Origin: an uncultured bacterium
GTDB taxonomy: Bacteria; Margulisbacteria; WOR-1; JAKLHX01
Reading direction: 5' to 3'
DNA length: 64,000 nt
Assembly (NCBI GenBank): GCA_964633925.1
Contig: CAZWKB010000003.1
Location: 4,598 to 68,597, forward strand
The notes under the pieces are model-generated. The model saw only the letters and a list, made by a program, of their open reading frames with translations, was not told where the DNA came from and did no database searches. The first letter of the stretch is position 1, and each line of letters opens with the position of its first letter. Shown here piece by piece: positions 14,285-61,529 of this stretch. A program made the position numbers and the translations under genes.

Positions 14285-17200
14285 ATGCTTAAAAGAGTTT
14301 TAGTCTATTACGGCTGGCTTAGTGCAATCAATGGTTTGTTTGATGTAGAAGCCGCTGCAGAAAAATTTTCAAATTATGATATAGTCATTATAGGCGATGG
14401 ATTAGAGCATCCTGCACATCCTGACTATGCTAATACAACAGCTATTATAGCTGCTACTAAAACAATTAATGTAGTCACAAAGTTTTTCGGATACATTCCA
14501 GTTGGACAATTAAGTCCATCAAAATTAGACATTTCCACGATGCAAGATTATGCAGATGAGTGGGTTGTTACTGGTGCTGACGGTATATTTCTTGATGAAT
14601 TTGGATATGATTATCATGTATCAAGAAGTTTACAGAATCAAATAGTATCATACTGTAAGAACCTCAATTTACCGGTAATTGTAAATGCTTGGAGCCAAGA
14701 ACACGTATTCGGAAAAGAAGCCTATGTTGATGGAGACTTCCATGCAAATGATTCTGGAGAAATTCCAGTTTTAAATCAAGACGATTTTATCTTATTCGAA
14801 AGTCTATTTACCTATAATGAAGAAGGCACTCAAAAATTCGCAACAGGTAATAGAATTTTTGAAGCAGTAAAATATCTTCAATTTAATAGAGAAGAATATT
14901 CAAATAAGACTTATTATGACCAATACAAAGTTAGGCCTTTGGCAGTTGATACTATTGATAAAAGCCTTGAAGACAAAAACAGGTTATTTGCAATAGGGTA
15001 TTATAGCAGTTATATGCTTAATTTTGTTGGTTATGGCGCATCTTCTCCAAATTATGGTGCTAGTGACCCAGACATAAATCACTACTTACCTTCGCCAAAT
15101 CCTAAATTAGAACCGCCTTCTTGGCATATAGTCGATGTTACTCCATATCAAAGTAGTGGTAGACAGTTTAGAACTGCTTATACAAATGACTTTGGAGACG
15201 TTATAATTAAGCTTATATGGTTAGAAGGAAATCCTGTTTGGGACATAACAAAAGGGGAGCACGTTGTATTTCTGAACGATATTGAAAAAAATACTTTTTC
15301 AGATGATGCGACAGACTTATATCCTCAATTCATAGATGACCCATTGTTTATGAAAAGCACAGAAGGGAATATATCAGTTGTTGGTAGTGAATTTCAAACA
15401 GGATATGGAGCACCAACTGATTCTCATAGATTTATCAGGCCCGGAGGTGGAGGCCTTGCCCCTGATGATTGGTGGTATTGCGGAGGACCAGAATGGCCAG
15501 GTTATGCAATTGCAATTGTTAATGTAAATACAATTGCAGAAAGAAATGCCTTAGCAGCTTCAATCGGAGTCAAACAGGTAAAAGTCCAAGAAAATGATAC
15601 ATTATATAAGTATGATGGTAGTAATTGGGTTTCGATAGTTGGCAACGACCCTAAAGAAAATTATCAAGGATTTTTGGATGCCGGAGGTCAATGGATTGAC
15701 CCTACTGACCAAGACAAAGCTCAATTAGCTTCATTGACAGACAATCCAATATACTATAATATAACCCCATACAAATTGGTTAAACTCGATGCTACAGACC
15801 CCAAAGTAAGGCAAGGGACACCGCCTTCTGATATGCCTCAGAACTATGGTTTAACTCAATGTTTTGAGCTTAATCAAACGAATAAACATTATATGAAGAT
15901 ATCTTTCTTCTATAAAACAGTTGGTTTTTCTGTTACTCCGCAGGTTAATTTCCAGGGATATAGTGCTGCTATTTTAGACAATAACTGGTCTGAAACAAAC
16001 TCTGGTGGTACTTATCTATTTATGGACACAGCATCAACATCATCACCCTGGAGAGAGGCTTCTCAGATTATAACTGCAGAATATCCTTTCTTATATGGAT
16101 TTGTCCATATGCTAGTAAGAGGCGCATCTACTGGACAGTTATTTATTACTGGATTAAAACTAGAACAATTGCAGATTGTAAAAGATGATTCAGTCGTATC
16201 TGACAATTTACTTATAAACGGAGATTTTGCCGTTGCAATTTCAGATATTAATGTTAAAGGAAACGTTCTTGGATTTGAAATGGAAAATGCAACTAAGGCA
16301 ACATACTCAACGCCTCTACCAGTAGTAAATTTCTTGGCCACTGTCGATGTTAAGCCAGAAGGCTATTTTGAACAAAGAGGTATAGTAACAAATTCAAGTT
16401 TGAATATGTATACGCTTAAAGTACCTTATCGCTCGCTTTTAGGATGTCAAGGAAAGATTATTGTTGAACTTAGAGATAGGTTTAAAAATATACTATCTTT
16501 AAAAGAAATTCAATTGGATGTAATAGAGTCTACAGTATGGAAAGAACAGCTAGTAGAATTTATTGCAGGCTATCCAGTTGAATCAGTAGACATTCGTATT
16601 GAAAATACCGGTACTACTGGAAACCTTACAATAGGTAAATTGGCTCTTACTGCTGCTGACTTAGGGATAACAGATGGCGACATAAATGCAGTTAATGGTA
16701 CTGAAGAAGAAATAACTATTAGTCAGATGGCTAGAGCAGACCATACAAGAGTTGTTGGCTTACCAGAACCAATGGGAATAAGCAAAGTTAAAGCTGACTT
16801 TTTCAAAAAATTTACAGAAGAACAGCTAATGCATGAAGATGACCCATACGAGGGAATTGTTTATATCACTGATGGTAATATAAAAGATATTTCTCCAAAA
16901 CTTTGCAGAAGATTATCTACTGTAAAAGTGTATGAAACAGTACCTTTTACACAAGGAGATTTTGAAAGCAATGCATATGATGTAGGTTCTGATACTGATT
17001 CTGTAATGGTCAAATACAATGGAATTATGATGCTGCCATACTTAAAACCACCACATCTTTCGCATATCCATACTTGGAAAGAAACTGGTGCAAATTTTTC
17101 TGCTCAGCATATGGGTAGGAGATATTATTGTGTAACAGCCTATAATGCTCAAGGTGAAACTACTAAATCAAATATTATTGTAGGTAAAGCTGAAGGCGTA

Positions 17201-20200
17201 AACGGTGTGAAAGTATCAGGTGTCATTAAACCACCTCAGTGCAAAGTACCAATAGAAATTACACCAAGTGAAGGTGCTGTTGGTTATAGAATTTATGTAA
17301 CAGAAGAGGCTACGCCTTGGAGTCAGTTACAAAACACAGTTGGTAGAGATTGGTTCTTCTTAGAATCTTCATTCTATTATGTAATGAAAATGAATTATCC
17401 TATTTGGGGAGATAATTGCTTATTAGACGAAATCACTACAGAAGAGCTTAGAGAAATGGGATATGTTTATTATGATGATGGGCATATTGCAAACACTCAG
17501 CAGGGAAAACCACCAACTTCAAATACTGCTTTAGTATATATGCTGAACGATGGGGTTTTATATTTTGATGACTTATTTAAAGACTGGGTATCAAGATATG
17601 ATTATACAAAGCTAAGCATTTTCAAAAGCGTTGATACTACGAAGAAAGAAATGAATGGCGGTATTTATCTGCCAAACAAAAAAATGTTTTATATGTCGGC
17701 AGGAACAAAACTGTTTTATCATGATGAATATCAATTAGCTGAAGTATATCAAATTGGTAATTCAGAACTTGGTGATGTAAAAGGCTGGTGTAATGATAGT
17801 GATGAAGCCTATTATGTAACAGACCAGGGTAAAATAGTTAAGCTGTCTGATGGTTCTGTAATAAGTATTGCAGGTACAGTCTTTACAAATATCTTAGGAA
17901 TTGTAAAAGAAGATAATGGATTTGCAATATTAAGAGGTAATTCTATAACAAAAATAAATATGACTGGAGCTGTGACTAGCCAGTTTAATATTCCTTCTGG
18001 AATTGCTGGTTCTTTAATAGGTTTTTCTAAGGTATTTGATAAATATGTAGTATTTAATGATACTACTAAAAAACTAATATTCTTTGATAACCTTGCAATA
18101 CGTAGTCAAATAACTCCTACTGCCGTACCAAAGTTTTTCAACGTTGTAGGTACTACACTATTTATTTATATAGCACATGAAGAAGACGAACTACCTCACT
18201 CAATGCTGCTATATGATTTGATATGCGAAAAGTACTATGGAGAGATGAATCCAGTAAAGATATTCGACTCAGAACCACAATTTCCAGATGCTGACAGACA
18301 ATTAATTTTATGGGAAAGCGACCCTAACCTATATCCGAATATAGTCCCAAATGGAGACTTCAGATGTAGTTTATTAGGAGACCAAGTATATCCAGCTTAC
18401 ACTGAAATATTCCCTTCACCACCGGCTAACGTACCTTGGTCTGTCGAAAGAGATACTGTTTTAGATGTTGAAAAAAATATAATACATTTTAAGAATGGTG
18501 GAAACACACAGGCAAGACTTTATTATTCTCGCATAGGTATAAAAGGTGGTATGCAATACCAAGTTAATCTCACCGCTAAAGCTCTCGCTTCTGGTGGTTA
18601 TGTAAATATTACATTTGGTGTAAGAAACAAGCATGATAAAGAGCGTTGGGGAATAAATAATCATGGAATTTCAATAGGCACTGAATATAAAACAATAAGC
18701 TTTAAAATCCAAATACAGGAAGAAGCCCTGTCAGTCAACGTAGATTTGAGTTTTGGTGCAGGCATTGAATATAAGGTATCGGCATTCGAAATTATACCGC
18801 TAGACCCAGTTCTAGAGATTCCAGAGTTTCTTGAAAATGGGGATATGAGTATAATAGACCAGGGTGCGAATTATCCTTCGGGCTTCAAAATGTCAAACAT
18901 GCCAAACGAAACAGGATTGGCAAATGTGACTTCATCAATGGTTTTAGATTCTACCAATGGCAATGCATGGAGAATAGTTGATACAAATACAGCTAAAGAA
19001 AAATGGTATATTGACCTACCTATTATGAAAATCACTGCAGGCGACCAATTGAGATTGAAATTTAAGTATAAATGCAGTAGTACAACAGCAGACATGCTTG
19101 TAAGAGTAATAATGTGTTTTGAAGATGGAGCTCCAATACAGAGTCTTAATGATTTTACTGTAAAAGCTTCAGATACAAACGAGCATGAATATGTATTACC
19201 TACGTCTCCATTCATGGAATACTGTACTTATGACCCAGTTCAATATCCAGCCTTTGCAGGAAAACCTTATCCTAAACTGATGGTTCGTATTCATCCGGCT
19301 GCTGGTGCTACAAGCGAATTTAGAATGTTTGCTCCAGAATTATTCGTTTCAGGTAATTCGTTACAGAGAGCAACAAATCCTGAATTTGCAGATGGAATTT
19401 CAGCATGGTATACTACGATGCCAACTCCTGTTGGAAATACGGCAATAACTGCAGAAACAAAAGATGGTGTAAAATGCGCCCACTTTGTACATGCGGGCAA
19501 TGGCACTGCACAGCTTTGCCAAGAATTTGAAATACCAAAAACTAAAAACCCAATTGAAGTTGCAATAACGCTCAAAGGTACATTAACGAGTACGCTTGCA
19601 GATGCTGCCGCTTTAAGATTTAACGATGTATTCTTCTCTAGTCCGAATGGTCAATTCAAAGATAATAGCAATGCAGATTGGCCGTTTGAAAGGATTGCAA
19701 TATATCTAGAAGCGCTTAGCGAAGCAGCTTTCCCAAAAGGTAGTTTAAACTACACTGATTGGACTACATTAAAATTTACTGTTAATCCAAAAGTTGTTGA
19801 TAATGTTACAGACTATATATTCAAATGCTCGTTGAAATGTACTATATCTTCAAACTGGGGATGCACGGCAGCAGACCTTTATATAAGAAGTATCACTTGT
19901 ACTGAAATTTCAAGTGAAGTAGTTGAGGACCCTGATGATATTGAAATAGTTTGTCAAGATACTTTTACGGTTAGTCAGGGATATATACCAATTACGCTTA
20001 AACTTAAAAAAGGTGACGAAAATGTAGCAATAGGAGCACAAACAATTCAATTGACTTCCAATGACCCAGCAGGAGAGATCGAAATTAGCAGCACTAATGT
20101 TTTAGGATATGCAAGGGCTTTGTTTATTCCTAAGGTGTTTGCTGGTATAGTAAAACTAACTGCGACATATGGAAGCGTAACTGCTACAAAAGAAATAGAA

Positions 20201-21571
20201 GTAATGCCTCTGATAACACAGTTTAAGTCATTCAGAGAGATTGTTGGTTTTGATGATTTATTTTCTGATAAACTATATCTTGAAGTTATTTATAAGAAAA
20301 GATTCAAGGACTTCAGGCATGAAGGTGACCAAGTACAAGGATGGACAGTATTTAGGTCTCCTGAGTTTAACAAAGAACAGACAATGGACACTCCAATGAG
20401 TATTTCAACTTTAGATTCTGGATATTTAAGTAGAATGCAAGAACTATTTGATACGTTCCCATATTACTATTGCAATTTTTCTGAATATTTCGACTATGTT
20501 GCAGATAAGAACGAAATGTATGCATCACCGGTAGAGCGTGCACAAGCTTATATTTTCAGAAACAGAAAATGGTGGTATTCTTTAAGCCTTGAGGGTTATA
20601 AATCTCCATTCGGAGCTCCTGACTATAGAAGGTTGTACAATTGGAGGGAAAAGGAAATGTTCCAATGGTATATGGACAGAATAATGTTCATAATGAAACC
20701 GTATGTAGATGGGATTTATTTGGATGACTTTTGGGGAGAAGAATATAAGACATCTGCAGGATTTGACTTCAGCTTTAAGAAAACACCATTGCTCAACTAT
20801 TTAAGCTTTATGGATAGACAATATGCACAGGCAAGGACGCTTAAATATCTTGGGTTTAAATGTAGACTAAAAGGTAAATATCTATGTTGTAACTATGGTG
20901 CTTCAGTTGATGCAAACTATAGTTCAGATGGTTCTCCCAAAAGGCTTACAAACGGAGATATCGACCCTAATTCAGGCAAATACTCACCGGCAGATATGGC
21001 ATTGATTTATCCGTTTGATGGATTCTTAATTGAAAACTTTACAGGTTGGGATGACCAAGTTGGAATGACAGCAGAAAGTTCAATCAACCAGCTTACAAAC
21101 AACATGTGGATGGTTCGTGGTATTATAGAATTGATGAGATATTGTAGGGACCACGGCAAGTTTATTGTTTGTTTGGCAAGAGGAACCCCACAAAACTGGG
21201 ATATAAGGATGATGAACTTCGCATTGTTCTTAATGGGATGGTTCCCAAATGCTTATATGACAATGCATCAGTTAACAGAGTACGGAGAAGATGAAGACGA
21301 AGCAGTAAGGTATGGAGAAGTATTCCATATTCAGATGCTTCCTGAAATGAGGATTCGCTTAGGCGAACCGAAATCAGACTATGTATGGAATAACTACCTA
21401 TTCAGCAGAGAATTTGATAACTGCATCGCACTGGCAAACGCTTCTACATCTTCTGGTAGAAGCTATACATTGCCAGAAGGAATATGGTATGACCTTAAAG
21501 GGAATGCTTACACTGGGACAGTAACAGTTCCAAAAGCATCTGCATTAGTAGTTATGAAAGTAAGACCATAA
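14285..21571 (+). CDS. Giant (2,428 aa) tail fibre / putative polysaccharide depolymerase
   Basis: Single uninterrupted ORF. The N-terminal (VLVYYGW...GIFLDEFGYDY) and C-terminal (YVDGIYLDDFWGEEY) regions resemble GH114/GHL-type TIM-barrel hydrolases. At least four N(G/P)(D/E)F-initiated CBM4/9-like modules and one Ig-like module lie between them. Confidence 0.6.
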   Translation: MLKRVLVYYGWLSAINGLFDVEAAAEKFSNYDIVIIGDGLEHPAHPDYANTTAIIAATKTINVVTKFFGYIPVGQLSPSKLDISTMQDYADEWVVTGADGIFLDEFGYDYHVSRSLQNQIVSYCKNLNLPVIVNAWSQEHVFGKEAYVDGDFHANDSGEIPVLNQDDFILFESLFTYNEEGTQKFATGNRIFEAVKYLQFNREEYSNKTYYDQYKVRPLAVDTIDKSLEDKNRLFAIGYYSSYMLNFVGYGASSPNYGASDPDINHYLPSPNPKLEPPSWHIVDVTPYQSSGRQFRTAYTNDFGDVIIKLIWLEGNPVWDITKGEHVVFLNDIEKNTFSDDATDLYPQFIDDPLFMKSTEGNISVVGSEFQTGYGAPTDSHRFIRPGGGGLAPDDWWYCGGPEWPGYAIAIVNVNTIAERNALAASIGVKQVKVQENDTLYKYDGSNWVSIVGNDPKENYQGFLDAGGQWIDPTDQDKAQLASLTDNPIYYNITPYKLVKLDATDPKVRQGTPPSDMPQNYGLTQCFELNQTNKHYMKISFFYKTVGFSVTPQVNFQGYSAAILDNNWSETNSGGTYLFMDTASTSSPWREASQIITAEYPFLYGFVHMLVRGASTGQLFITGLKLEQLQIVKDDSVVSDNLLINGDFAVAISDINVKGNVLGFEMENATKATYSTPLPVVNFLATVDVKPEGYFEQRGIVTNSSLNMYTLKVPYRSLLGCQGKIIVELRDRFKNILSLKEIQLDVIESTVWKEQLVEFIAGYPVESVDIRIENTGTTGNLTIGKLALTAADLGITDGDINAVNGTEEEITISQMARADHTRVVGLPEPMGISKVKADFFKKFTEEQLMHEDDPYEGIVYITDGNIKDISPKLCRRLSTVKVYETVPFTQGDFESNAYDVGSDTDSVMVKYNGIMMLPYLKPPHLSHIHTWKETGANFSAQHMGRRYYCVTAYNAQGETTKSNIIVGKAEGVNGVKVSGVIKPPQCKVPIEITPSEGAVGYRIYVTEEATPWSQLQNTVGRDWFFLESSFYYVMKMNYPIWGDNCLLDEITTEELREMGYVYYDDGHIANTQQGKPPTSNTALVYMLNDGVLYFDDLFKDWVSRYDYTKLSIFKSVDTTKKEMNGGIYLPNKKMFYMSAGTKLFYHDEYQLAEVYQIGNSELGDVKGWCNDSDEAYYVTDQGKIVKLSDGSVISIAGTVFTNILGIVKEDNGFAILRGNSITKINMTGAVTSQFNIPSGIAGSLIGFSKVFDKYVVFNDTTKKLIFFDNLAIRSQITPTAVPKFFNVVGTTLFIYIAHEEDELPHSMLLYDLICEKYYGEMNPVKIFDSEPQFPDADRQLILWESDPNLYPNIVPNGDFRCSLLGDQVYPAYTEIFPSPPANVPWSVERDTVLDVEKNIIHFKNGGNTQARLYYSRIGIKGGMQYQVNLTAKALASGGYVNITFGVRNKHDKERWGINNHGISIGTEYKTISFKIQIQEEALSVNVDLSFGAGIEYKVSAFEIIPLDPVLEIPEFLENGDMSIIDQGANYPSGFKMSNMPNETGLANVTSSMVLDSTNGNAWRIVDTNTAKEKWYIDLPIMKITAGDQLRLKFKYKCSSTTADMLVRVIMCFEDGAPIQSLNDFTVKASDTNEHEYVLPTSPFMEYCTYDPVQYPAFAGKPYPKLMVRIHPAAGATSEFRMFAPELFVSGNSLQRATNPEFADGISAWYTTMPTPVGNTAITAETKDGVKCAHFVHAGNGTAQLCQEFEIPKTKNPIEVAITLKGTLTSTLADAAALRFNDVFFSSPNGQFKDNSNADWPFERIAIYLEALSEAAFPKGSLNYTDWTTLKFTVNPKVVDNVTDYIFKCSLKCTISSNWGCTAADLYIRSITCTEISSEVVEDPDDIEIVCQDTFTVSQGYIPITLKLKKGDENVAIGAQTIQLTSNDPAGEIEISSTNVLGYARALFIPKVFAGIVKLTATYGSVTATKEIEVMPLITQFKSFREIVGFDDLFSDKLYLEVIYKKRFKDFRHEGDQVQGWTVFRSPEFNKEQTMDTPMSISTLDSGYLSRMQELFDTFPYYYCNFSEYFDYVADKNEMYASPVERAQAYIFRNRKWWYSLSLEGYKSPFGAPDYRRLYNWREKEMFQWYMDRIMFIMKPYVDGIYLDDFWGEEYKTSAGFDFSFKKTPLLNYLSFMDRQYAQARTLKYLGFKCRLKGKYLCCNYGASVDANYSSDGSPKRLTNGDIDPNSGKYSPADMALIYPFDGFLIENFTGWDDQVGMTAESSINQLTNNMWMVRGIIELMRYCRDHGKFIVCLARGTPQNWDIRMMNFALFLMGWFPNAYMTMHQLTEYGEDEDEAVRYGEVFHIQMLPEMRIRLGEPKSDYVWNNYLFSREFDNCIALANASTSSGRSYTLPEGIWYDLKGNAYTGTVTVPKASALVVMKVRP

Positions 21572-35662: not shown

Positions 35663-35692
35663 TATATTATAAAGCAGTAGGAGGTTTTGAGG

Positions 35693-36604
35693 TTGTCAAA
35701 GTATATTATTGGTGGAGGGATTGCCGGTTTAATTGCGGCTTATTATAATAAAGAATATAAGATTATTTCTCAAGATATTGGCGGTCAAATGGTTTCTAAA
35801 AATGTTGGCCCAAGAATATTAGAAGTAAATCAATATTCTAAAGAATTTCTTAATGATTTAGGCATAAAAGAATGCCCTATCAAAATCGCTAAAATAGGTT
35901 ATAAAGTAGAAGGAAAGCTTGTAAATTCAATATCTGAAGACTTAAGAAAAAAATATTATATTAAGTCAAGATGTTTACATACGGCAGCTATTGTACCAAG
36001 TTCAATAATGTCAGACGGTAAGAGTTTTATTGAATATTTCGATATTGATTGGGACAAAGTTGTTAGTATTTTAGTAAATAGTATAGAAAAACCTATAAAC
36101 GGTAAAGTTAGTTTAATCGATACTACAAATCATATCTTAAAAGTAGAATCTGATGGTTCTGAAATTTTAAGATATGATAGTTTGGTATCGACAATTCCTG
36201 CACCGGTATTCTTTAAAATTTCAAACTTGCAACCAGAACAAGAACTTAAGTATGTTCAAAAGGTTTTTGTAGTAATGAATGAAGACCAAATTGACTTTGG
36301 GGAGTTTGATTATATATATTTCCCAGACTCAGCTCACGGATATCATAGGATATCTAAAACAGGAAATGGAAAGGCTTCAATAGAATATACGACAAATAAG
36401 AGTTATAAGTCTATAATTCAAACTTGGTCAATGTATTCTCGCGAACATCACGTTATTCCTGTTGGTCAGATTCAGAGCGGTAAGGTTCAAGAAATAAATG
36501 ATATTTTGTTTCTTGGAAGATATGCAAGTTGGGACCATGATATAAAAACAGATGATATTGTCAAAATTTGTAGAGATGGGGGTTTGATTAATGCAAAACG
36601 ATAA
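35693..36604 (+). CDS. FAD/NAD(P)-binding Rossmann flavoprotein (UDP-galactopyranose mutase / amine-oxidase-like)
   Basis: IIGGGIAGLIAAYY is GxGxxG at the N-terminus. C-terminal FLGRYASWDHD resembles the UGM GRxxxYxYxxMD motif. TTG 35693 lies 8 nt after AGGAGG. Confidence 0.55.
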   Translation: MSKYIIGGGIAGLIAAYYNKEYKIISQDIGGQMVSKNVGPRILEVNQYSKEFLNDLGIKECPIKIAKIGYKVEGKLVNSISEDLRKKYYIKSRCLHTAAIVPSSIMSDGKSFIEYFDIDWDKVVSILVNSIEKPINGKVSLIDTTNHILKVESDGSEILRYDSLVSTIPAPVFFKISNLQPEQELKYVQKVFVVMNEDQIDFGEFDYIYFPDSAHGYHRISKTGNGKASIEYTTNKSYKSIIQTWSMYSREHHVIPVGQIQSGKVQEINDILFLGRYASWDHDIKTDDIVKICRDGGLINAKR

Positions 36605-37547
36605 AGACAAGCTTAAGCATTTGTGGGACGTTCAGTTAGAATTTAACAGGAAGTTTTACAGGGCAAAGATAGGTAAAGAAATGGAAGACATGACTATGGA
36701 AGAAAAAGTATTTTGGTCTAAAAACCAATTGCTTTCTATAGTAAAAGAATCAATGGAAGTGCTGGATGAAATTCCGAATTGGAAAGAGCATCGCAATATT
36801 GAAACAGAATTTATTCCTTCGAATTTATATGAAGAAATAATCGATGTCAATAAATTCTCAGTAGGACTTGCACAAATCTGGGGTATGACCTTTGAAGATT
36901 ATTATGAGGAATATCTTAGAAAAAGCTGGGTTGTTGACCAGAGATGGACACAAGAACATGATTTAAAACTTATTGACAAAGACGAAAAGATTGCAGCAGT
37001 TGACATTGATGGCGTCTTAGGAGAATATCCATTTTGGTTCTTGGAGTTTGTTCGGGCGAGAGTTGGACAGAAATTTAATTCATTAGAAGAAGCAAAGGCA
37101 GGGCTTGGTACGATTTATTATGAAAGACTTAAGTCTGACTATCGCCAGTCAGGATGGAAATCTTCTATGCCTGCTTGCAAACATGCTTCAGAATTTACTA
37201 ATTTACTTCATCAAAAAGGATATAAAGTGGTAATTCTTACAGCACGCCCTTATAAGGAATATTACACTATTTATCCGGACACATTAAAGTTCCTTAAGGA
37301 AAACAATATATATTTCGACGCTATTATTTGGGATAAAGAGAAACATCTTAAAATCATAAAAGAATTTCCTAAAATGCTTTTTATGGTAGAAGATTGTATT
37401 GAGATTGCGATCGATGTTGCAAAAGAAGGTTATGTGGTTTTTCTTAAAGATTGTTATGACAATACTAATCGTATTCCATCTGAATTAAGTAATTTGATTA
37501 TACCGTTTATAGACCTTCTAGATATAGTCGAAAAGTGGAACATATAA
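36591..37547 (+). CDS. Fusion: all-alpha NTP pyrophosphatase (dimeric dUTPase/MazG-like) + HAD 5'(3')-deoxyribonucleotidase-like domain
   Basis: N-terminal half: LWDVQLEFNRKF...ESMEVLDEIPNWKEHR...EEIIDVNKF...EYLRKSWVVDQRW. C-terminal half: AAVDIDGVLGEY (DxDxV), VVILTARP and FMVEDC. Confidence 0.6.
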   Translation: MQNDKDKLKHLWDVQLEFNRKFYRAKIGKEMEDMTMEEKVFWSKNQLLSIVKESMEVLDEIPNWKEHRNIETEFIPSNLYEEIIDVNKFSVGLAQIWGMTFEDYYEEYLRKSWVVDQRWTQEHDLKLIDKDEKIAAVDIDGVLGEYPFWFLEFVRARVGQKFNSLEEAKAGLGTIYYERLKSDYRQSGWKSSMPACKHASEFTNLLHQKGYKVVILTARPYKEYYTIYPDTLKFLKENNIYFDAIIWDKEKHLKIIKEFPKMLFMVEDCIEIAIDVAKEGYVVFLKDCYDNTNRIPSELSNLIIPFIDLLDIVEKWNI

Positions 37548-37590: not shown

Positions 37591-37624
37591 AAGGTGTATA
37601 TTTAAGGTGAAGGGGGTTTTTAAA

Positions 37625-38053
37625 ATGGCAATTTTGCTTTTCGTCGGCTGCGATAAGACTGGCAAAAGTACACTTATGAAAAATATCTTAAAAAGAACAA
37701 ACCAACATATTTGCGTGGACAGGTTTACTCCATGTCAGTATGTTTATGGGAGGCTTCATAATAAAAATTCAACTCCAAGTTTGGAAAGTTTTAGAAATTT
37801 GGAAAGTTTTTTAACAAAATCTCCTATTCCAGTTATGTTTGTTCATGTTTTTGCCGATACTGAAGATATTAAGAAAAGGTTTATAGAACATGATGAAAAA
37901 GATATTGATTTACAACAGATTGATTATGTAAAGCAACAATATAGGCAGTATTTAGAAAATACTTCTTTAAAAGTATTAAATATAAACACTTCTAAATATT
38001 GTATAGATGAGTGTATGGAACAAATTCTGTTAACAGCTGAACGCTTATTATAA
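37625..38053 (+). CDS. Small P-loop (deoxy)nucleotide kinase-like protein
   Basis: MAILLFVGCDKTGKST has Walker A at the extreme N-terminus, as in dNMP/thymidylate kinases. 142 aa. ATG 37625 follows GAAGGGGG. Confidence 0.5.
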   Translation: MAILLFVGCDKTGKSTLMKNILKRTNQHICVDRFTPCQYVYGRLHNKNSTPSLESFRNLESFLTKSPIPVMFVHVFADTEDIKKRFIEHDEKDIDLQQIDYVKQQYRQYLENTSLKVLNINTSKYCIDECMEQILLTAERLL

Positions 38054-38066
38054 GGAGAGATTTAAT

Positions 38067-39104
38067 ATGAAAGCAAAATTGGGAATGGGTGGTTACTTTG
38101 TAAATCCTGTTGACCATCCTGAAAGAATAATCAGATATGCATATGATATGCTAGATATTAGGATTTTTGATACTTCTCCAGCATATGGTGCTAGTGAAGA
38201 ATTTTTTGGGCATGCGCTTAGAGACTATCAGAGGGAGTCCTATTTATTGTCTACTAAGACAAAGGCAGCTACAGTCAAAGAACTTCATTTGTCTTTGGTA
38301 AATAGTTTAGGTAAACTCAATACTGACTATGTAGACTTTTATTTTGGCCATTCGTTTATAGATGATGACGAAACCTTGGAAAAATCTATGAACGTTTTAC
38401 ATGAGATGAAAAATATTAAGGACAAAGGGTTTATAAAAAGTGTAGGTGTTTCTGGGCATTCAGTTACTGCTGCAATGACTGCAATAGAAAGTGGATTTGT
38501 AGATATAATAATGGTACCATTTTCTTTAATGCATAGGGAGTTTGAATCTATTATTCAATGTGCAAAAGAAAAAGGAATTAGTGTAGTCACTATGAAAAAC
38601 TTCGCAAGCGGAATATTGCTTGGAGGGCCTTCTGATAATGAATTTAAACGCACTGTGACATTGCAAAAAGTTATGAATTTTTCTGCATACAATGGTGACT
38701 TAATCATTCCGGCTTATCGTTCTATAGAACAATTACAACAAATAGCAAATGCATATTGCTTTGCTGAAAAACTATCTGAAAAAGAAATTATGATTTTAGA
38801 AAATCAGATAGTTGATTTTTTTGGTTCTGACTTTTGTAGGTTTTGCAACGAATGCAGGCCATGCCAGAAATATGGTTGGGCAATGTCGCAGCCCGGTATA
38901 TTAAAATGCGCAATATATCAAGAAAAGTTTGGACTTGACATGAAAGACAGTTATGAAAAATATAAATATAATGTAAATGACTGTAAAGACTGTGACAGCC
39001 AATGTTCTTCTAATTGCCCGTTTGGAATAAATATTAAAGAGAAAATGCAACAGGCACATGATTTATTTTCAGGAGTTGATAAAGATGAAACGATATCTAA
39101 ATAA
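38067..39104 (+). CDS. Aldo/keto reductase with C-terminal Fe-S (ferredoxin-like) cysteine clusters
   Basis: AKR-like FDTSPAYGASEEFFGHAL...DYVDFYFGHS. The C-terminus carries CRFCNECRPC and CKDCDSQCSSNCP. Confidence 0.6.
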   Translation: MKAKLGMGGYFVNPVDHPERIIRYAYDMLDIRIFDTSPAYGASEEFFGHALRDYQRESYLLSTKTKAATVKELHLSLVNSLGKLNTDYVDFYFGHSFIDDDETLEKSMNVLHEMKNIKDKGFIKSVGVSGHSVTAAMTAIESGFVDIIMVPFSLMHREFESIIQCAKEKGISVVTMKNFASGILLGGPSDNEFKRTVTLQKVMNFSAYNGDLIIPAYRSIEQLQQIANAYCFAEKLSEKEIMILENQIVDFFGSDFCRFCNECRPCQKYGWAMSQPGILKCAIYQEKFGLDMKDSYEKYKYNVNDCKDCDSQCSSNCPFGINIKEKMQQAHDLFSGVDKDETISK

Positions 39105-39576
39105 GGAAGACAGATATAATACTATTATTTTAGGGACTCTCGTTGACTTCATGAATAATTTGATTATCAAGTTTGAAGAACTTAAAAGACCAAAGTCTGT
39201 AATTAAGTTTATGAAAATGTCAAGGTCATTCTGCCTAAAAGTTATAGATTGGTACTTTCAAAATCTTGATGACAAATATAAGCATGATGTAATAAATGAA
39301 ATGAAAAAACTTGAAATAATAGTAAAACAAAAGACTGAAGCCATTAGGGAATTTAAAGAAATGGAAAAAATAGAATCAAATATGGTTGTTGTTACAGAAG
39401 ATTTTTATGAAATTTGTGAATATGCTTTGCTTGTCTGTATGAAATGTAAGGCAGGCAAAGAACAAATTGCAGAATGCAAGTTAAAGGAAGCTATGATAAG
39501 AAATAACGTTCCAGTTATGCATTTGGAAATTTCTGATGATGGTTGCCCTTATAAATATAATCAGGAGGTGCTTTAA
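39085..39576 (+). CDS. Hypothetical helical protein with C-terminal Cys motif
   Basis: ATG 39085 follows AGGAG and overlaps the AKR 3' end by 20 nt. Carries CMKCKAGKEQIAEC...GCPY. Confidence 0.4.
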   Translation: MKRYLNKEDRYNTIILGTLVDFMNNLIIKFEELKRPKSVIKFMKMSRSFCLKVIDWYFQNLDDKYKHDVINEMKKLEIIVKQKTEAIREFKEMEKIESNMVVVTEDFYEICEYALLVCMKCKAGKEQIAECKLKEAMIRNNVPVMHLEISDDGCPYKYNQEVL

Positions 39577-39577
39577 C

Positions 39578-40669
39578 ATGGATGTAGTTAGAGAAAAGAC
39601 AGTTAAGAAAATATTGCCGTATGTAAAGCTTATTGAAAAAGAAGCTTTGAAAGGCCCGATATCGTTGCATATTTTAGTTACTGACTACTGCGTCAACCGG
39701 TGTAATATGTGCGGTCATTGGAAAACTAAAAATCGCAATAATTTGGACATTTCTATTTTAAAAGAAATATGGGATGACTGTAATGAAAATGAAGTAGAGT
39801 CAATCTGCTTAACTGGCGGTGACCCAATTCTCCATCCAGATTTTGATAAAATTCTGGATATGAAAAGAAATTTTGACCTTGGAATTATTTGCACAGGTAA
39901 TTTTAAAAAGAATTTCGATTTTTCGAAATTGGCAAGCTTAAGGTGGATACGCTTTTCTATTGATTCTCTAGACCCTGCTAGATACACTTTTATTAGGGGC
40001 CTCGATAATTTATATGGAACGATTTTGCCTAACGTTAGAAAGGCTCAAGAGCATCAAAAAGAGGTTGGAATAAATTTCACAATACAGAAAAGTAATTGCA
40101 TGGACATTCGCGACATTATTAAGTTTTCTGCAGAAAATAATATCTATAGACTTATGATTTATCCTATGCACGGTGATGGAAACCTCTGTATTGGTAGAGA
40201 TGAAATTGAAATAATTTTAGAACAACTAAACGATATGATAAGTAAGAACTATCACAAAAGAATACCCGAAAACAATTTGCAGTTTCTTTATGACAGCCTT
40301 ATACAGGCATATTCACAAGATGAAGATGTTAGAAAAGTGACATTCGGTAATTATCCATGCATCATAAATAAAATTCATTTAGCTATAGGTTCTGATGGAA
40401 ATGTATTTCCGTGCGAGATGATTGCTGATGATACAGATGAATATGGAGAAAGAACATTTTGGGAATTGCAAAAGTTCAGCGATTGCTTAATGGAAAGACA
40501 AACTTCATTTACAGGCCTTGGCAATGTTAATTCTGAAAGCATTATAAAAATATGGAAAAGAAATTTCAACAAAACATTCTGTTCCGGAAAATGTGATAAT
40601 TGCTTTAGTAGATATCAGCCAATAAACCAAGCATACTATGAAAATCGTAATAAAAAGGTATTTATATAA
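39578..40669 (+). CDS. Radical SAM enzyme with SPASM/twitch-type C-terminal cysteine clusters
   Basis: CVNRCNMCGHW is CxxxCxxC, with LTGGDPILHPDF following. C-terminal YPCIINKIHLAIGSDGNVFPCE and CSGKCDNCFSRY. ATG 39578 follows AGGAGGTG. Confidence 0.7.
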   Translation: MDVVREKTVKKILPYVKLIEKEALKGPISLHILVTDYCVNRCNMCGHWKTKNRNNLDISILKEIWDDCNENEVESICLTGGDPILHPDFDKILDMKRNFDLGIICTGNFKKNFDFSKLASLRWIRFSIDSLDPARYTFIRGLDNLYGTILPNVRKAQEHQKEVGINFTIQKSNCMDIRDIIKFSAENNIYRLMIYPMHGDGNLCIGRDEIEIILEQLNDMISKNYHKRIPENNLQFLYDSLIQAYSQDEDVRKVTFGNYPCIINKIHLAIGSDGNVFPCEMIADDTDEYGERTFWELQKFSDCLMERQTSFTGLGNVNSESIIKIWKRNFNKTFCSGKCDNCFSRYQPINQAYYENRNKKVFI

Positions 40670-40691: not shown

Positions 40692-40720
40692 GTTAATAAA
40701 TGATTCTTTTGTGATATAAT
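40692..40720 (+). promoter_or_regulatory. Promoter (GTTAAT-N17-TATAAT, extended TG)
   Basis: TGTTAATAAATGATTCTTTTGTGATATAATAATATTATAAAC. Confidence 0.6.
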
Positions 40721-40749
40721 AATATTATAAACCAATAAAGGAGGATATT

Positions 40750-41805
40750 ATGAGTAACGAAACTACGCGTATCAATGAACTTAGGAGAGTTATGGGGACA
40801 CTTCCAGACCAAGACCCAAAACTTGAAACAAAATTTTTAAAAGGTGTTGAAGGAATTTCGGTAAAACTTATCGAATCTGTCATTGCAAACCCTTATAAAC
40901 CAATGTATATTCTGGCTACTACATGCTGGGGTAAAGAGGTAGATAAATGGGAAATGACATCGCCTGAAAACAGATTTGAAGTTGTTAAGGCAGCTTTAAG
41001 AGGCCAAGCGTTACCATTGGCATTGGAAGTACCTCAATTTGCTTTTGCAGTAGAAGGGCCATCACGTGCGGCATTCGATCAGATTGCAAGAGCAAGACTT
41101 GGTGTTGTATTTTCTGCAAGAGGTATGAGGGATAACAATTGGAAAGATGCTTCAATAAGGATTCCAACTGCACTTTGGCCAACAGAAGATGAAATTCAAA
41201 TTTTCGATGAATGGCGCAGTAATATCATCAAAACACCTACAGCAGAGCAGCAAAAAGCAATTGACAAATGCAATATTTTTTGGAATATCAAGCGTGTTAT
41301 GTGCGATGTTAAACAGACATATGCAGATATTGTTGACGTTGGTAAAGGTTCTTGGCAGGCAGCTCGCTGTGTACTACCTCTTTATGTAGTTTATGGTTTT
41401 TCGTTTTCGATTAACTTTATGGCATTGAGGAATATGTGCAGTACCAGAATGAAATTCTGCGAAATGGAAGATACAGTTGCTATTGCATGGCAAACAGCTA
41501 GGGCTGTGTCGGAAGCATATCCGTTGCTTGGTTCATTTTTAAGACCTGGTTGTGATTGGGCAGGCAAATGCCAGTACCACAAATCTTATACACTGTCTGA
41601 AATGTTTGGCTGTTTGTTTAAGGAGTGTGGAAGGAATTCATGTCCCGACAGCAATGACTATGCGGAGTTTAATGAAACATGCACAAACTATAAGGACCTT
41701 GAGGAACAGCTCGGTATTCATATTACAAGGCCCGATGAATGGCCTAATTTCGAAACTTTTGATAGCCTTCCCGATATTGAAAAAGCAAGGTTTATGGAAG
41801 ACTAA
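40750..41805 (+). CDS. Divergent ThyX-fold (flavin-dependent thymidylate synthase-like) protein with a Cys-rich C-terminal extension
   Basis: FAFAVEGPSRAAFDQIARARLGVVFSARGMR aligns to the ThyX RHRxxSxxxxSxRY motif but with RHR changed to RAR. AARCVLPLYVVYGFSFSINFMALRNMCSTR aligns to the ThyX ARxVLPL...N.R.L.NF..LR helix. 351 aa. Confidence 0.6.
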   Translation: MSNETTRINELRRVMGTLPDQDPKLETKFLKGVEGISVKLIESVIANPYKPMYILATTCWGKEVDKWEMTSPENRFEVVKAALRGQALPLALEVPQFAFAVEGPSRAAFDQIARARLGVVFSARGMRDNNWKDASIRIPTALWPTEDEIQIFDEWRSNIIKTPTAEQQKAIDKCNIFWNIKRVMCDVKQTYADIVDVGKGSWQAARCVLPLYVVYGFSFSINFMALRNMCSTRMKFCEMEDTVAIAWQTARAVSEAYPLLGSFLRPGCDWAGKCQYHKSYTLSEMFGCLFKECGRNSCPDSNDYAEFNETCTNYKDLEEQLGIHITRPDEWPNFETFDSLPDIEKARFMED

Positions 41806-41817
41806 ATTTTAATAAGG

Positions 41818-41852
41818 TGGGCCAATGAGCTTTGCGCCATTGGCCCATTTTA
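41818..41852 (+). terminator. Rho-independent terminator
   Basis: 10-bp stem TGGGCCAATG/CATTGGCCCA with a 10-nt loop, then TTTTA. Confidence 0.65.
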
Positions 41853-41870
41853 TAACAAGGAGAGACTAAT

Positions 41871-46154: not shown

Positions 46155-46856
46155 ATGCAGATTATTAAACCTGGCTTCGCAATAGAAGAAGGCATTGATG
46201 GTTTAGCTATCCTTAGAAAAATCGAAAAAGCAGGTAGAACTTGCTATAAATCTGAGGATAAAATAACTGATGAGTCGGCAAAAAAGTTCGTTGCTTCTTT
46301 AATTAAAAGCGGCCACGAGGCAATGATTGAACATCATTTTGTAACTGTAACTTTTACTGTAGATAGAGGAGTTACACATGAAATTGTTCGGCACCGTATT
46401 GCTTCATATGCACAAGAATCTACAAGGTATTGCAATTATGGTAAAGAAAAAAGCGGCTCAGAAATTACCGTAATTGATATTCGTGAAATTATGGAAGCAG
46501 AAGTTGGTAAGACCTATAAGCATCCAGTTAATAATGAACAGATTCTTGTAACTGCAGAACTTGTTAATTACTGGATTTCTGAATGGTTAGGTGCTATCGA
46601 AGACTCTGAAAGGCACTACATATCGCTTGTAAATTCTGGTTGTCCTGCACAATTGGCACGTTCGGTGCTATTACATTCTGTCAAGTCTGATATCGTTGTT
46701 ACAATGGACTTAAGAGAGTGGAGGCATTTCTTTAGGCTTCGCGCATTAGGTACTACTGGAAAACCTCATCCACAGATGGTGCAAGTAGCTAAACCTTTGT
46801 TGGACGAAATGAAAGTCCAAATCCCGGTTGTCTTTGATGACCTTTCATATGCTTAA
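46155..46856 (+). CDS. thyX: Flavin-dependent thymidylate synthase ThyX (canonical)
   Basis: GVTHEIVRHRIASYAQESTRY contains the full RHRxxSxxxxSxRY signature. 233 aa. Confidence 0.9.
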   Translation: MQIIKPGFAIEEGIDGLAILRKIEKAGRTCYKSEDKITDESAKKFVASLIKSGHEAMIEHHFVTVTFTVDRGVTHEIVRHRIASYAQESTRYCNYGKEKSGSEITVIDIREIMEAEVGKTYKHPVNNEQILVTAELVNYWISEWLGAIEDSERHYISLVNSGCPAQLARSVLLHSVKSDIVVTMDLREWRHFFRLRALGTTGKPHPQMVQVAKPLLDEMKVQIPVVFDDLSYA

Positions 46857-57400: not shown

Positions 57401-57622
57401 ATGATTAAGTATATTGTATATCCCGGTAGTATGATGAGTAAAAACGACAACCAAATACATCATATAAGTGCTCATCAACTTATATGTCTTTATGGAGTTA
57501 AACGTGAAGAATGCATTATTGCAAGTTCCACAGACAGAATACAAAAAATGGACTCTTCACATTTAACTCCATTATATCCTCGTTATGATGGGAACTATAA
57601 ATTAGATAAGGAAGGTGTTTAA
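57401..57622 (+). CDS. Small hypothetical protein
   Basis: 73 aa, preceded by GGTGGTG. No motif recognised. Confidence 0.4.
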   Translation: MIKYIVYPGSMMSKNDNQIHHISAHQLICLYGVKREECIIASSTDRIQKMDSSHLTPLYPRYDGNYKLDKEGV

Positions 57623-57626
57623 TTTG

Positions 57627-58232
57627 ATGGAAATTATTGCATTCGAGGGAATTGACAAATGTGGTAAAGCTACTCAGACAAATGTTTTAGTAGAAAAGCT
57701 TAGAAAAGCTGGTAAGAATGTAGTCAAATCTGAATTTCATAGGTATGATACACCAACTGGCAAGCTCATACAGGAATGGTTATACAAGAAATATGATGTT
57801 GACGACCAAACAATTGAATTTATTATGGCGGCAGACAAACAGGCTCAACAACAATGGTTTAAGCAATTAAATCATGATGGTGTTGACTTTTTAGTTTTGG
57901 ACAGATATATTTTAAGTCAAGAAGTTTATGCTATATCAAAAGGTCTTAATAAAATTTTCGTTCAGATGTTACAGAGCTGTTTAATAAAGCCAGGCGTGGA
58001 AATTCTTATCGATATACCGGCAGATTTGAGCATGAATAGAAAAGGCAAGCATGGCGATAATGATAGATATGAAGAGGATTTTAAGTTCTTAAATTCAGTC
58101 AGAACCAATTATCTAAGCTTATGTTCTCAAAATGGTATCGATAGGTTAAGGACCATAATCGATGGTACTCAGACAATCGATAAAGTCAGCGATGATATTT
58201 GGAACTATGTAAAAAAATTATACAAAATTTAA
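57627..58232 (+). CDS. tmk: Thymidylate (dTMP) kinase
   Basis: IAFEGIDKCGKATQ P-loop, DRY motif (LVLDRYILS) and a lid region. ATG 57627 follows AAGGAAGGTG. Confidence 0.8.
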   Translation: MEIIAFEGIDKCGKATQTNVLVEKLRKAGKNVVKSEFHRYDTPTGKLIQEWLYKKYDVDDQTIEFIMAADKQAQQQWFKQLNHDGVDFLVLDRYILSQEVYAISKGLNKIFVQMLQSCLIKPGVEILIDIPADLSMNRKGKHGDNDRYEEDFKFLNSVRTNYLSLCSQNGIDRLRTIIDGTQTIDKVSDDIWNYVKKLYKI

Positions 58233-61040: not shown

Positions 61041-61529
61041 ATGGAAAGCAGAATTAGTTGGGACCATTATTTTTTACTTATGGCAAAGGTTGCAGCCACA
61101 AGAGCAACTTGTTTTAGTGACCCAAAAGGGGCAGTCATCGTATCAAACAAGAACATTGTGTCTACCGGATATAACGGTGCTCCGAGTGGTATTAAAGATT
61201 GTAAGTATGGCTACGGTGTCTGTCTTAAAAGGGAAATGGGATTTGAGCATGGAACTGGACATCATGTTTGCAGAGCGTCGCATGCTGAAGCTAATGCAAT
61301 TATTCAGGCAGCTAAAAACGGTATTAGCATCAACGAAGGGACTTTATATTCTACACATAAGCCATGTCATGAATGTGCTAAACTAATAATTAATTCTGGC
61401 ATAAAGAAAGTCGTTTACATTCATGATTATGCCGGAACTGACTGTTTAGAATTGTTTGGCGAAGCCGGAATTAGATGTGTTCATGTTGTCGATTTCGACT
61501 TACAGAAAATGTTAAATCAAATAAAATAA
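61041..61529 (+). CDS. dCMP deaminase (ComEB/Cd-like)
   Basis: HAEANAI and PCHECAKLI zinc-binding motifs, with NGAPSG upstream. Confidence 0.85.
   Translation: MESRISWDHYFLLMAKVAATRATCFSDPKGAVIVSNKNIVSTGYNGAPSGIKDCKYGYGVCLKREMGFEHGTGHHVCRASHAEANAIIQAAKNGISINEGTLYSTHKPCHECAKLIINSGIKKVVYIHDYAGTDCLELFGEAGIRCVHVVDFDLQKMLNQIK

Follow-up and report, generated by a model that had tools for sequence, protein, structure and literature searches.

A ThyX-fold protein with a rewritten catalytic side and a cysteine-rich domain in a conserved gene module of uncultivated phages

The ThyX-like gene and its relation to ThyX

The window analysed here, 64,000 nt of contig CAZWKB010000003.1 (assembly GCA_964633925.1), is part of a large phage genome (the source contig measures 111 kb) and encodes two proteins of the ThyX fold (flavin-dependent thymidylate synthase, FDTS). 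One of them is a canonical ThyX; the other, encoded at 40750-41805 and called the ThyX-like protein below, is the subject of this study. A sequence-only reading of the window had described its gene as monocistronic, with a promoter and terminator of its own, and the protein as a divergent ThyX paralogue with an altered active-site motif and a Cys-rich tail. The following features belong to the two genes; locus L005 is the relative used for comparison.

40693-40720, + strand: promoter-like element (-35 TTAATA, 16-nt spacer, extended -10 TGaTATAAT), from a consensus scan, conserved in L005
40737-40745, + strand: Shine-Dalgarno sequence AAAGGAGGA, 4 nt before the ATG, conserved in L005
40750-41805, + strand: gene for the ThyX-like protein, 351 aa, with a ThyX core at about aa 38-259 and a Cys-rich tail at about aa 260-351
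41812-41853, + strand: terminator-like hairpin and U-run, from folding, an inverted repeat and a hairpin at the same place in L005
46155-46856, + strand: canonical ThyX, 233 aa, with the full RHRxxSxxxxSxRY signature (Thy1, 132.6 bits)

The ThyX-like protein matches the Pfam family Thy1 (PF02511) over aa 46-258 with E=1.1e-13 and 51.8 bits, above the gathering cut-off of 24.8. Its AlphaFold2 model, built on 30 homologues, reached a pLDDT of 90.4 and a pTM of 0.88, and all of the top 50 Foldseek matches of this model in the PDB were ThyX/FDTS proteins or PolB (E about 5e-9, target-normalised TM 0.62-0.74). Alignment of the whole ThyX-like family to canonical ThyX by hhalign gave a probability of 99.3% (E=2.5e-20). 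The sequence-only reading had proposed profile and Foldseek comparisons as a check and had named the absence of a significant ThyX relationship as a ground against its claim. Such a relationship was found by hhalign, Foldseek and Pfam, and this objection fails because of the Foldseek and hhalign matches. In the NCBIfam equivalog thyX (TIGR02170) the protein scores 26.9 bits against a cut-off of 87.9 and is not accepted. Its altered motif was also read correctly: the protein has FDQIARARLGVVFSARGMRDNNW at the position of the ThyX signature, and the protein at 46155 has the full signature, RHRIASYAQESTRY, at aa 79. The ThyX-like protein is a ThyX-fold paralogue and not a redundant copy.

Comparison of the window with L005 gives 76% amino acid identity for the ThyX-like protein and 63% for the canonical ThyX, and the ratio of nonsynonymous to synonymous substitution rates (dN/dS) is about 0.08 and about 0.20, respectively, with dS near saturation. 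Since the ThyX-like gene is the more conserved of the two by both measures, it is not a decaying duplicate.

The terminator-like hairpin at 41812-41853 begins 7 nt after the stop codon, has a 16-bp stem and a dG of -26.5 kcal/mol (z=-5.7; none of 200 shuffles as stable) and is followed by UUUUAU. It was recovered by direct folding, because its loop is larger than the limit of the terminator scan. The L005 orthologue (about 75-76% amino acid identity) has a hairpin of different sequence and equal strength at the same place. For the promoter, the block from the -35 element to the Shine-Dalgarno sequence and ATG (40692-40749, about 60 nt) is about 90% identical to L005, where the DNA farther upstream is unrelated, but the number of promoter-like consensus matches in this AT-rich region is not above chance (47, versus 46.5 in shuffled sequence). 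Support for a promoter and terminator of its own therefore comes from conservation with L005 and not from motif statistics, and a monocistronic transcript is plausible from the conserved signals but not proven.

The family to which the protein belongs is large and restricted to viruses. A search of 5.8 billion proteins returned 209 full-length homologues of 317-360 aa including the tail, and 1.84 billion representatives, searched exhaustively with a profile, yielded 78 representative clusters at E<=1e-30, 580 at E<=1e-10 and 2357 at E<=1e-3. IMG/VR contained 62 loci with a ThyX-like gene. Among 185,579 species-representative genomes there were five matches, all on contigs of metagenome-assembled genomes (MAGs), and all homologues lie on uncultivated viral or MAG contigs; one relative was deposited as ‘MAG: Thymidylate synthase complementing protein [Sedimentibacter sp.]’. 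No family member was found by tblastn with both subgroups in 50,697 GenBank phages, and BFVD returned only ordinary ThyX proteins at 10-18% identity. The exhaustive search also recovered a wider radiation of ThyX-like viral proteins (P0164, P0171, P0179, P0185 and P0202) whose shared motif is R-x-R ... G-x-RDN or a variant, whose Cys motifs differ or are partial and which end in other C-terminal extensions. Their motifs suggest several more neofunctionalised ThyX lineages.

Active site, Cys-rich domain and two-gene form

Three segments of the gene encode the residues discussed in this section:

41074-41136, + strand: remodelled ThyX motif FDQIARARLGVVFSARGMRDN (aa 109-129), from alignment to ThyX of Mycobacterium tuberculosis (Mtb) and Thermotoga maritima (Tm), invariance in 115 members and intein sites
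41446-41463, + strand: R233-M-K-F-C237-E238, in which R233 is Tm Arg174 and C237 is Tm His178
41527-41802, + strand: Cys-rich C-terminal domain PGC268D-x4-C274xY...FGC288LFxxC293GR...FNxxC311, with five Cys invariant in both subgroups

Residue equivalences were taken from the alignment to Mtb and Tm ThyX, and invariance was counted over 115 full-length family members. In the alignment R106 corresponds to Mtb R87, R114/A115/R116 to the RHR triplet, and G125, R127, D128, Q203, R206, R233 and C237 to Tm Ser88, Arg90, Tyr91, Glu144, Arg147, Arg174 and His178, respectively; the position of Tm His53 is taken by A87/L88, with no His. In the core, L88, P89, E93, R106, F109, D110, Q111, R114, R116, G125, R127, D128, N129, Y191, Q203, R206, R233 and E238 are invariant in 115/115 members, and so are C268, D269, C274, Y276, F286-G-C288-L-F290, C293 and R295 in the tail. 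C237 and C311 are each present in 113 of the 115.

In Mtb ThyX deoxyuridine monophosphate (dUMP) is bound by residues from two chains, Arg95 and Arg199 on the one and Arg87, Ser105 and Arg107 on the other, and Tyr108 forms a lid that keeps solvent off uracil C5 and flavin N5 (PMC6514825). For Tm ThyX, strict conservation and a critical role are described for Ser88 and Tyr91 (Y91 mutants are about 1000-fold slower), and His53 stacks on folate and flavin (PMC11940539). All Arg that bind dUMP are present in the ThyX-like family: R106, R114, R116, R127, R206 and R233 occur in 115/115 members (Mtb R87, R95, R107 and R199, plus R97 and R172; Tm R78, R80, R90, R147 and R174). The signature RHRxxSxxxxSxRY is not retained. 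The protein of the window reads RARLGVVFSARGMRD and the family motif is R-[AT]-R-x-G-x-x-F-S-x-x-G-x-R-D-N, so that His (His79) is replaced by Ala or Thr, the first Ser by Val, the second Ser by an invariant Gly and Tyr by an invariant Asp. None of the residues His53, Ser88 and Tyr91 is found, as A87/L88, G125 and D128 stand at those positions. Further replacements in the family are His178 to Cys (Ser or Thr in a few members) and Glu144 to Gln, and the equivalent of the ‘folate loop’ has five extra residues and includes W60, G61, K66 and W67, all invariant.

On these alignments the ThyX-like family keeps the whole nucleotide cage and has a rewritten catalytic and folate side. The sequence-only reading had placed the change in the nucleotide pocket; this does not hold, as every Arg that holds dUMP in ThyX is invariant and the changes fall on the catalytic, folate and flavin side. 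It had also proposed a different substrate or a different one-carbon chemistry. With the Arg cage kept and the catalytic, folate and flavin side changed, a different chemistry or co-substrate is better supported and a different nucleotide less so.

It could be that the protein has left one-carbon chemistry altogether and reduces the C5=C6 bond of a pyrimidine, as dihydropyrimidine and dihydroorotate dehydrogenases do with flavin, Fe-S and a Cys/Ser acid, or that it is a flavin-dependent 5-hydroxylase. Precisely the folate and carbinolamine residues (His53, Ser88 and Tyr91) are lost and the nucleotide cage is kept, and a five-Cys domain could hold an Fe-S cluster. Because Ser or Thr takes the place of C237 in a few members, an acid/base role for this residue fits better than that of a metal ligand, and classes of dihydroorotate dehydrogenase (DHODH) show a Cys/Ser alternation that this one resembles. 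ThyA homologues have, moreover, already been shown to be flavin hydroxylases (PMC13326640). Against this, the proposal is drawn purely from patterns of residues, dihydropyrimidines are not known to serve as programmed DNA bases, and O2-dependent hydroxylation is unlikely in phages that probably infect anaerobes (the window encodes radical-SAM/Fe-S proteins, and a close relative was binned with Sedimentibacter). We regard such a chemistry as rather improbable.

The tail of about 95 aa (aa ~260-351) contains Cys268, 274, 288, 293, 298 and 311. The six Cys that had been counted by the sequence-only reading are all there, but only five are conserved and C298 is not. The pattern PxC-D-x4-C-x-Y ... 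F-G-C-L-F-x2-C-[GN]-R ... F-N-x2-C is kept in both subgroups, and its spacing, C-x5-C-x13-C-x4-C-x17-C, is not a standard motif. The tail had no Pfam match at E<=10 and no meaningful match in the PDB that would place it with a described Fe-S or zinc domain. Five invariant Cys suggest a metal site (Fe-S or Zn) or a dithiol relay.

Evidence on how the two sides of the active site are arranged comes from a mostly marine subgroup of about 30% identity, in which two adjacent, overlapping genes (o1 and o2) replace the single ThyX-like gene. The family model was aligned with 34 different o1 proteins and 31 different o2 proteins. All 34 o1 proteins keep L88, E93, R106, G125, R127, D128, N129, W202, Q203 and R206 and have lost Q111, R114, R116, R233, C237, E238 and the entire tail. 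Conversely, all 31 o2 proteins keep Q111, R114, R116, R233, C237, E238 and the five tail Cys and have lost the o1 set. This division matches exactly the chain-C (‘o1’) and chain-A (‘o2’) halves of the Mtb ThyX dUMP site (PMC6514825) and is indirect but strong evidence for an active site between subunits. The partition shows the family to have an active site of the ThyX type, shared between subunits; it marks the invariant residues as those that function and pairs the Cys domain with the ‘A-side’ residues. The o1 and o2 genes were found in loci L024-L066 (e.g., L025:9974-10789 and L025:10782-11492). In many of these marine loci phage GroES/GroEL genes follow, and in L044 a gene for a GIY-YIG homing endonuclease lies between o1 and o2.

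Inteins with homing-endonuclease domains interrupt the metagenomic family members P0121, P0126, P0122, P0152, P0160 and P0169. Their insertion sites, at least five in number (F|DQ, FS|xxGxRDN, G|xRDN, RDN| and F|C237-E), all lie inside family-invariant motifs. The remodelled ThyX motif carries them in P0122, P0152, P0160 and P0169, and in P0121 and P0126 the intein stands directly before C237, which acts as the +1 residue. Intein sites in essential nucleotide-metabolism enzymes are similar, and the positions independently support these motifs as functional. Loss of the key catalytic residues of ThyX could also be explained if the protein were a dead, ThyX-derived nucleotide-binding protein that serves as regulator or scaffold. 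About 30 invariant residues outside the structural core, the complementary retention of catalytic-type residues in the split form, the several inteins in catalytic motifs and the dN/dS of 0.08 all speak against this, and we consider it very improbable.

Conserved module and parallel thymidylate route

Gene neighbourhoods were compared in the 36 loci whose flanks each extend for 8 kb or more, covering +/-10 kb per locus. Four genes of the window are conserved partners of the ThyX-like gene:

35687-36604, + strand: c3, a minimised flavin adenine dinucleotide (FAD) protein similar to UDP-galactopyranose mutase (UGM), 305 aa, from profile, AlphaFold2 and Foldseek
36591-37547, + strand: c2, a fusion of a MazG/dUTPase_2-like NTP pyrophosphatase and an NT5C/HAD 5'-deoxynucleotidase, 318 aa
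37607-38053, + strand: short P-loop deoxynucleoside monophosphate (dNMP) kinase similar to thymidylate kinase (TMK), 148 aa
41871-42404, + strand: mini-ThyA, 177 aa, with Asp at Ec Asn177 (cytosine-type) and with the catalytic Cys, the RS and the His retained

Gene c2 was found in 35/36 loci (adjacent in 17), c3 in 35/36, the short kinase in 34/36 and the mini-ThyA in 32/36 (adjacent in 14, and in many others separated by Pol III alpha only). An RmlD-like short-chain dehydrogenase/reductase (SDR), c4, was present in 24/36 loci and a dCMP deaminase in 15/36. The partner set occurs in phages with Pol III alpha as well as in phages with Pol A replication modules. A thymidylate synthase superfamily enzyme, a dNMP kinase, a MazG-NT5C pyrophosphatase and a UGM-like protein, a combination like that of the phage pyrimidine hypermodification pathways of the T4/RB69/RL38J1 type, are found together in 32-35 of the 36 loci. 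The module of five genes (ThyX-like, MazG-NT5C, UGM-like, short kinase and cytosine-type mini-ThyA) looks like a pathway for DNA-base (hyper)modification, by analogy to described systems.

The c3 protein has no Pfam family, and no relative was found in cultured phages. Its profile matches the PDB with E=1.6e-6, its AlphaFold2 model has a pLDDT of 94.4 and its best Foldseek matches are UGMs (TMq about 0.7, E about 1e-14). The L024 orthologue of c2 matches dUTPase_2 (2.4e-6), MazG (8.7e-5) and NT5C (1.2e-4), and the two halves would take a deoxynucleoside triphosphate to the nucleoside in two steps. Gene c2 is not merely the dUTPase, because marine loci additionally encode an ordinary trimeric dUTPase. 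The short kinase is fused to the mini-ThyA in L017:12939-13820, L024:8969-9937 and L055:5080-6147, which argues that the two act on the same nucleotide. No fusion of the ThyX-like protein with any module partner was found, including fusions with the mini-ThyA among 268 family proteins; the long members contain inteins.

The mini-ThyA proteins (44 loci related to the window copy) are 146-250 aa long or fused to the kinase and have neither the N-terminal ~85 nor the C-terminal ~55 residues of ThyA. They keep Cys146, Arg126, Arg166, Ser167 and His207, and the nearest relatives in culture, with 29% identity, are Clostridium perfringens phage proteins named ‘thymidylate synthases’. In all 42 of 42 the residue at Ec Asn177 is Asp, and in 21 of the 42 Asp169 is replaced by Asn; N177D is a mark of cytosine specificity and D169N one of the flavin-dependent 5-hydroxy-dCMP synthases (PMC13326640). 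The RL38J1 pathway also includes a UGM and a TMK-like kinase (PMC13326640).

Given these substitutions, the ThyX-like protein might act on a cytosine nucleotide, or it might be the flavin-bearing partner of the mini-ThyA in a two-component system that modifies dCMP at C5 (by methylation, hydroxymethylation or hydroxylation) and feeds a glycosylated-cytosine pathway like those of RB69, DLP3 and RL38J1. The frequent proximity of the mini-ThyA, its diagnostic residues, its missing N-terminal part and the parallel of the UGM-like and TMK-like partners to the RL38J1 cluster are all consistent with such a role, as is the invariant Asp D128 beside the base-binding Arg. On the other side, the Arg that hydrogen-bond the uracil carbonyls (Tm R90 and R174) are kept where a change would be expected for a 4-amino pyrimidine, the ThyX-like protein has a complete nucleotide site of its own, the two proteins are never fused in the family set and no glycosyltransferase was identified nearby. 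We judge a role of either kind improbable, though not negligible.

The sequence-only reading had suggested a survey of co-occurrence with the adjacent genes. The genes directly upstream, radical SAM/SPASM (39536), AKR-FeS (38067) and DUF5651 (39058), were considered as functional partners and rejected as conserved ones, since they are limited to the window and L005. The three open reading frames (ORFs) overlap: 38067-39104 encodes an aldo-keto reductase (AKR) with a Cys-rich, Fe-S-like C-terminus, 39058-39576 the DUF5651 protein and 39536-40669 the radical SAM/SPASM protein. This trio (38067-40669) occupies the slot of the RmlD-like SDR and the small protein c7 in other phages. The AKR may be a non-orthologous, analogous replacement of a reductase step, as the RmlD-like reductase stands in that slot in 24/36 other loci.

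Beside this gene set the window encodes the whole ordinary route to dTTP, i.e., a dCMP deaminase, the canonical ThyX and a TMK:

57615-58232, + strand: canonical full-length TMK, 205 aa (Pfam Thymidylate_kin, 97.1 bits, profile 1-185 of 185)
61041-61529, + strand: dCMP deaminase (Pfam dCMP_cyt_deam_1, 86.2 bits)

One phage thus has two TMK-type proteins, the 148-aa module kinase (37607-38053) and the 205-aa TMK (57615-58232). All gene-like ORFs of at least 120 aa in the window (1-64000) are on the + strand, the GC content is 32-37% with a positive GC skew throughout, and no tRNA genes were found in it. Its replication and recombination genes encode a primase, a UvrD-like helicase, Pol III alpha, RecA, SbcCD, FEN, RuvC and a NusG-like protein, and a 2428-aa ORF (14285-21571) presumably encodes a structural or tail protein.

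Possible function and relation to known systems

The best explanation we can offer is that the ThyX-like protein is a neofunctionalised, nucleotide-modifying derivative of ThyX and not the dTMP synthase; we propose this tentatively, at somewhat less than an even chance, from the sequence comparisons above. The enzyme would bind a pyrimidine deoxynucleoside monophosphate over a flavin, whose retention is assumed, and dUMP would be the most likely substrate because the uracil-binding Arg are kept. Reducing equivalents would come in or be held via the Cys domain, through a metal or Fe-S site or a dithiol relay, and not via the NADPH/His53 site, and the nucleotide would become a non-canonical C5-modified pyrimidine dNMP. 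A first guess at the product is 5-hydroxymethyl-dUMP, which would form if, with a carboxylate in place of the Tyr lid that keeps solvent out, water captures the exocyclic-methylene intermediate. This product is preferred because the change from Tyr lid to Asp resembles that from Leu143 to Asp or Glu in ThyA-type hydroxymethylases; as a specific assignment, made by analogy, it is unlikely. The short dNMP kinase of the module would then phosphorylate the product, the phage Pol III would incorporate it and the MazG-NT5C fusion would clear the competing canonical nucleotide. In parallel, the canonical ThyX, TMK and dCMP deaminase of the window phage would supply dTTP.

Several points weigh against this explanation. 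Firstly, a hydroxymethylase that relays methylene from folate through flavin is expected to keep His53, Ser88 and Tyr91, and all three are gone; their joint loss makes the assignment of 5-hydroxymethyl-dUMP weak. Secondly, 33 of the 36 full-flank loci have no other thymidylate synthase within 10 kb. Thirdly, the dUTPase, dCMP deaminase and TMK-like kinase nearby would equally make up a plain dTTP pathway. Two thymidylate synthases in one genome are no proof of different functions either, since they co-exist in some bacteria. The co-occurrence counts are not independent, because many of the loci come from related phages. Lastly, the conserved neighbourhood yielded no clear glycosyltransferase and no other enzyme of post-replicative modification; the look-up for glycosyltransferases gave a single sub-threshold GT1 match in one recurrent neighbour (E=0.009, 16.7 bits), and several conserved neighbours are unannotated.

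The protein could instead be a genuine, highly divergent dTMP synthase that retains ThyX chemistry but takes its electrons from ferredoxin or thioredoxin, and not from NADPH, through a Cys domain that acts as an Fe-S or dithiol relay. It would then be the main thymidylate synthase of most carrier phages, and the canonical ThyX of the window clade would have been added later. All dUMP-binding Arg are kept, only three loci (the window, L005 and L006) have a canonical ThyX or a full-length ThyA inside 10 kb, the neighbours include dCMP deaminase, trimeric dUTPase, ribonucleotide reductase and TMK-like kinase, and the ThyX-like gene adjoins the replicative polymerase. However, Ser88 and Tyr91, critical in Tm ThyX (PMC11940539), are here an invariant Gly and Asp, the folate-stacking His53 position has no His and the score is far under the thyX equivalog cut-off. 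The window phage has a canonical ThyX and a TMK, yet its ThyX-like gene is under stronger constraint than that ThyX, and the module has a second kinase and a nucleotide-clearing MazG-NT5C of its own besides the ordinary dUTPase. A dTMP synthase therefore seems unlikely to us, though it deserves serious consideration.

ThyX/FDTS (PF02511, TIGR02170; TM0449, Mtb ThyX) shares with the ThyX-like family the fold, the inter-subunit nucleotide pocket, the dUMP-binding Arg, the phage replication and nucleotide-metabolism gene context and the role of intein target. The altered signature, the lengthened folate loop, the five-Cys domain of about 95 aa and the heteromeric version made by two genes set the family apart. 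To our knowledge, PolB is the only neofunctionalised relative of ThyX that has been characterised. This C5-methylase of UMP and dUMP from polyoxin biosynthesis (PDB 4p5b), at ranks 16 and 26 of the Foldseek matches, is likewise a case of the ThyX fold recruited beyond dTMP supply. In PolB the catalytic apparatus of ThyX and its methylation chemistry are retained, the main differences lie in the loops that admit UMP, and there is no Cys-rich domain. The ThyX-like family, in contrast, changes the catalytic residues themselves; it does not show the PolB-type pattern and has 15-16% identity to PolB. The atypical ThyX of Corynebacterium glutamicum (PDB 3ge9), which is not needed for thymidylate synthesis, is both a structural and a sequence match and co-exists with another thymidylate synthase, but it keeps an RHR...SQRF-type motif, has no Cys-rich domain and is cellular and not viral.

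In phages, the nearest descriptions that we found in the literature were the hypothesis on SP-15 and precedents on the ThyA side; no description of a ThyX-like phage family was found. Bacillus phage SP-15 encodes two Thy1-domain proteins, gp9 and gp130, one of which was hypothesised to be a hydroxymethyl-dUMP synthase (PMC5977210). The presence of two ThyX-fold proteins in one phage and the proposal of a modified dUMP are shared with our case, and an SP-15 protein is a weak structural match at rank 15; however, it has 413 aa and another domain architecture and showed no relationship to the ThyX-like family by tblastn. Neofunctionalised phage homologues of ThyA include the dCMP hydroxymethylase gp42 of T4, the dUMP hydroxymethylase of the SPO1 type and the 5-hydroxy-dCMP synthases RB69 gp48, DLP3 gp80 and RL38J1 (PMC13326640). 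They resemble the present case in that a few exchanged active-site residues let a thymidylate synthase scaffold produce a non-canonical pyrimidine dNMP, in the dedicated dNMP kinase, the dNTP pyrophosphatase and, for RL38J1, the UGM, and in the replacement of a hydrophobic, water-excluding residue by Asp or Glu, which correlates with non-methyl products. Their fold, which has a Cys nucleophile, is unrelated to ThyX, and the ThyA-type member of our module is the separate, truncated mini-ThyA.

Taken as a whole, it is possible, if doubtful, that the five genes form an undescribed pathway, with the ThyX-like protein as signature enzyme, that puts a new non-canonical pyrimidine into the DNA of widespread uncultivated phages of marine and anaerobic origin. 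The reaction would depend on flavin and the Cys or metal site and be new to the ThyX fold (O2-independent C5 hydroxymethylation or hydroxylation, or C5=C6 reduction), and the active site would be composite, with two different subunits in some phages.

What is new here is a family derived from ThyX whose catalytic side has been rewritten and which has gained a domain, also occurs in a heteromeric form and has a module dedicated to it. ThyX itself serves as a drug target and is a textbook example of covalent catalysis at flavin N5. Active-site substitutions, few in number, in phage members of the ThyA superfamily have repeatedly given new DNA bases (5-hydroxymethylcytosine, 5-hydroxymethyluracil and, latest, 5-hydroxycytosine), and each such discovery has led to new anti-restriction biology and enzymatic tools. 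The family also offers two experimental handles: the natural two-subunit version assigns residues to the halves of the active site, and the window genome has the ordinary dTMP route alongside for comparison. A large ThyX-derived family of this kind would be the ThyX-side counterpart of the neofunctionalisation of ThyA in phages.

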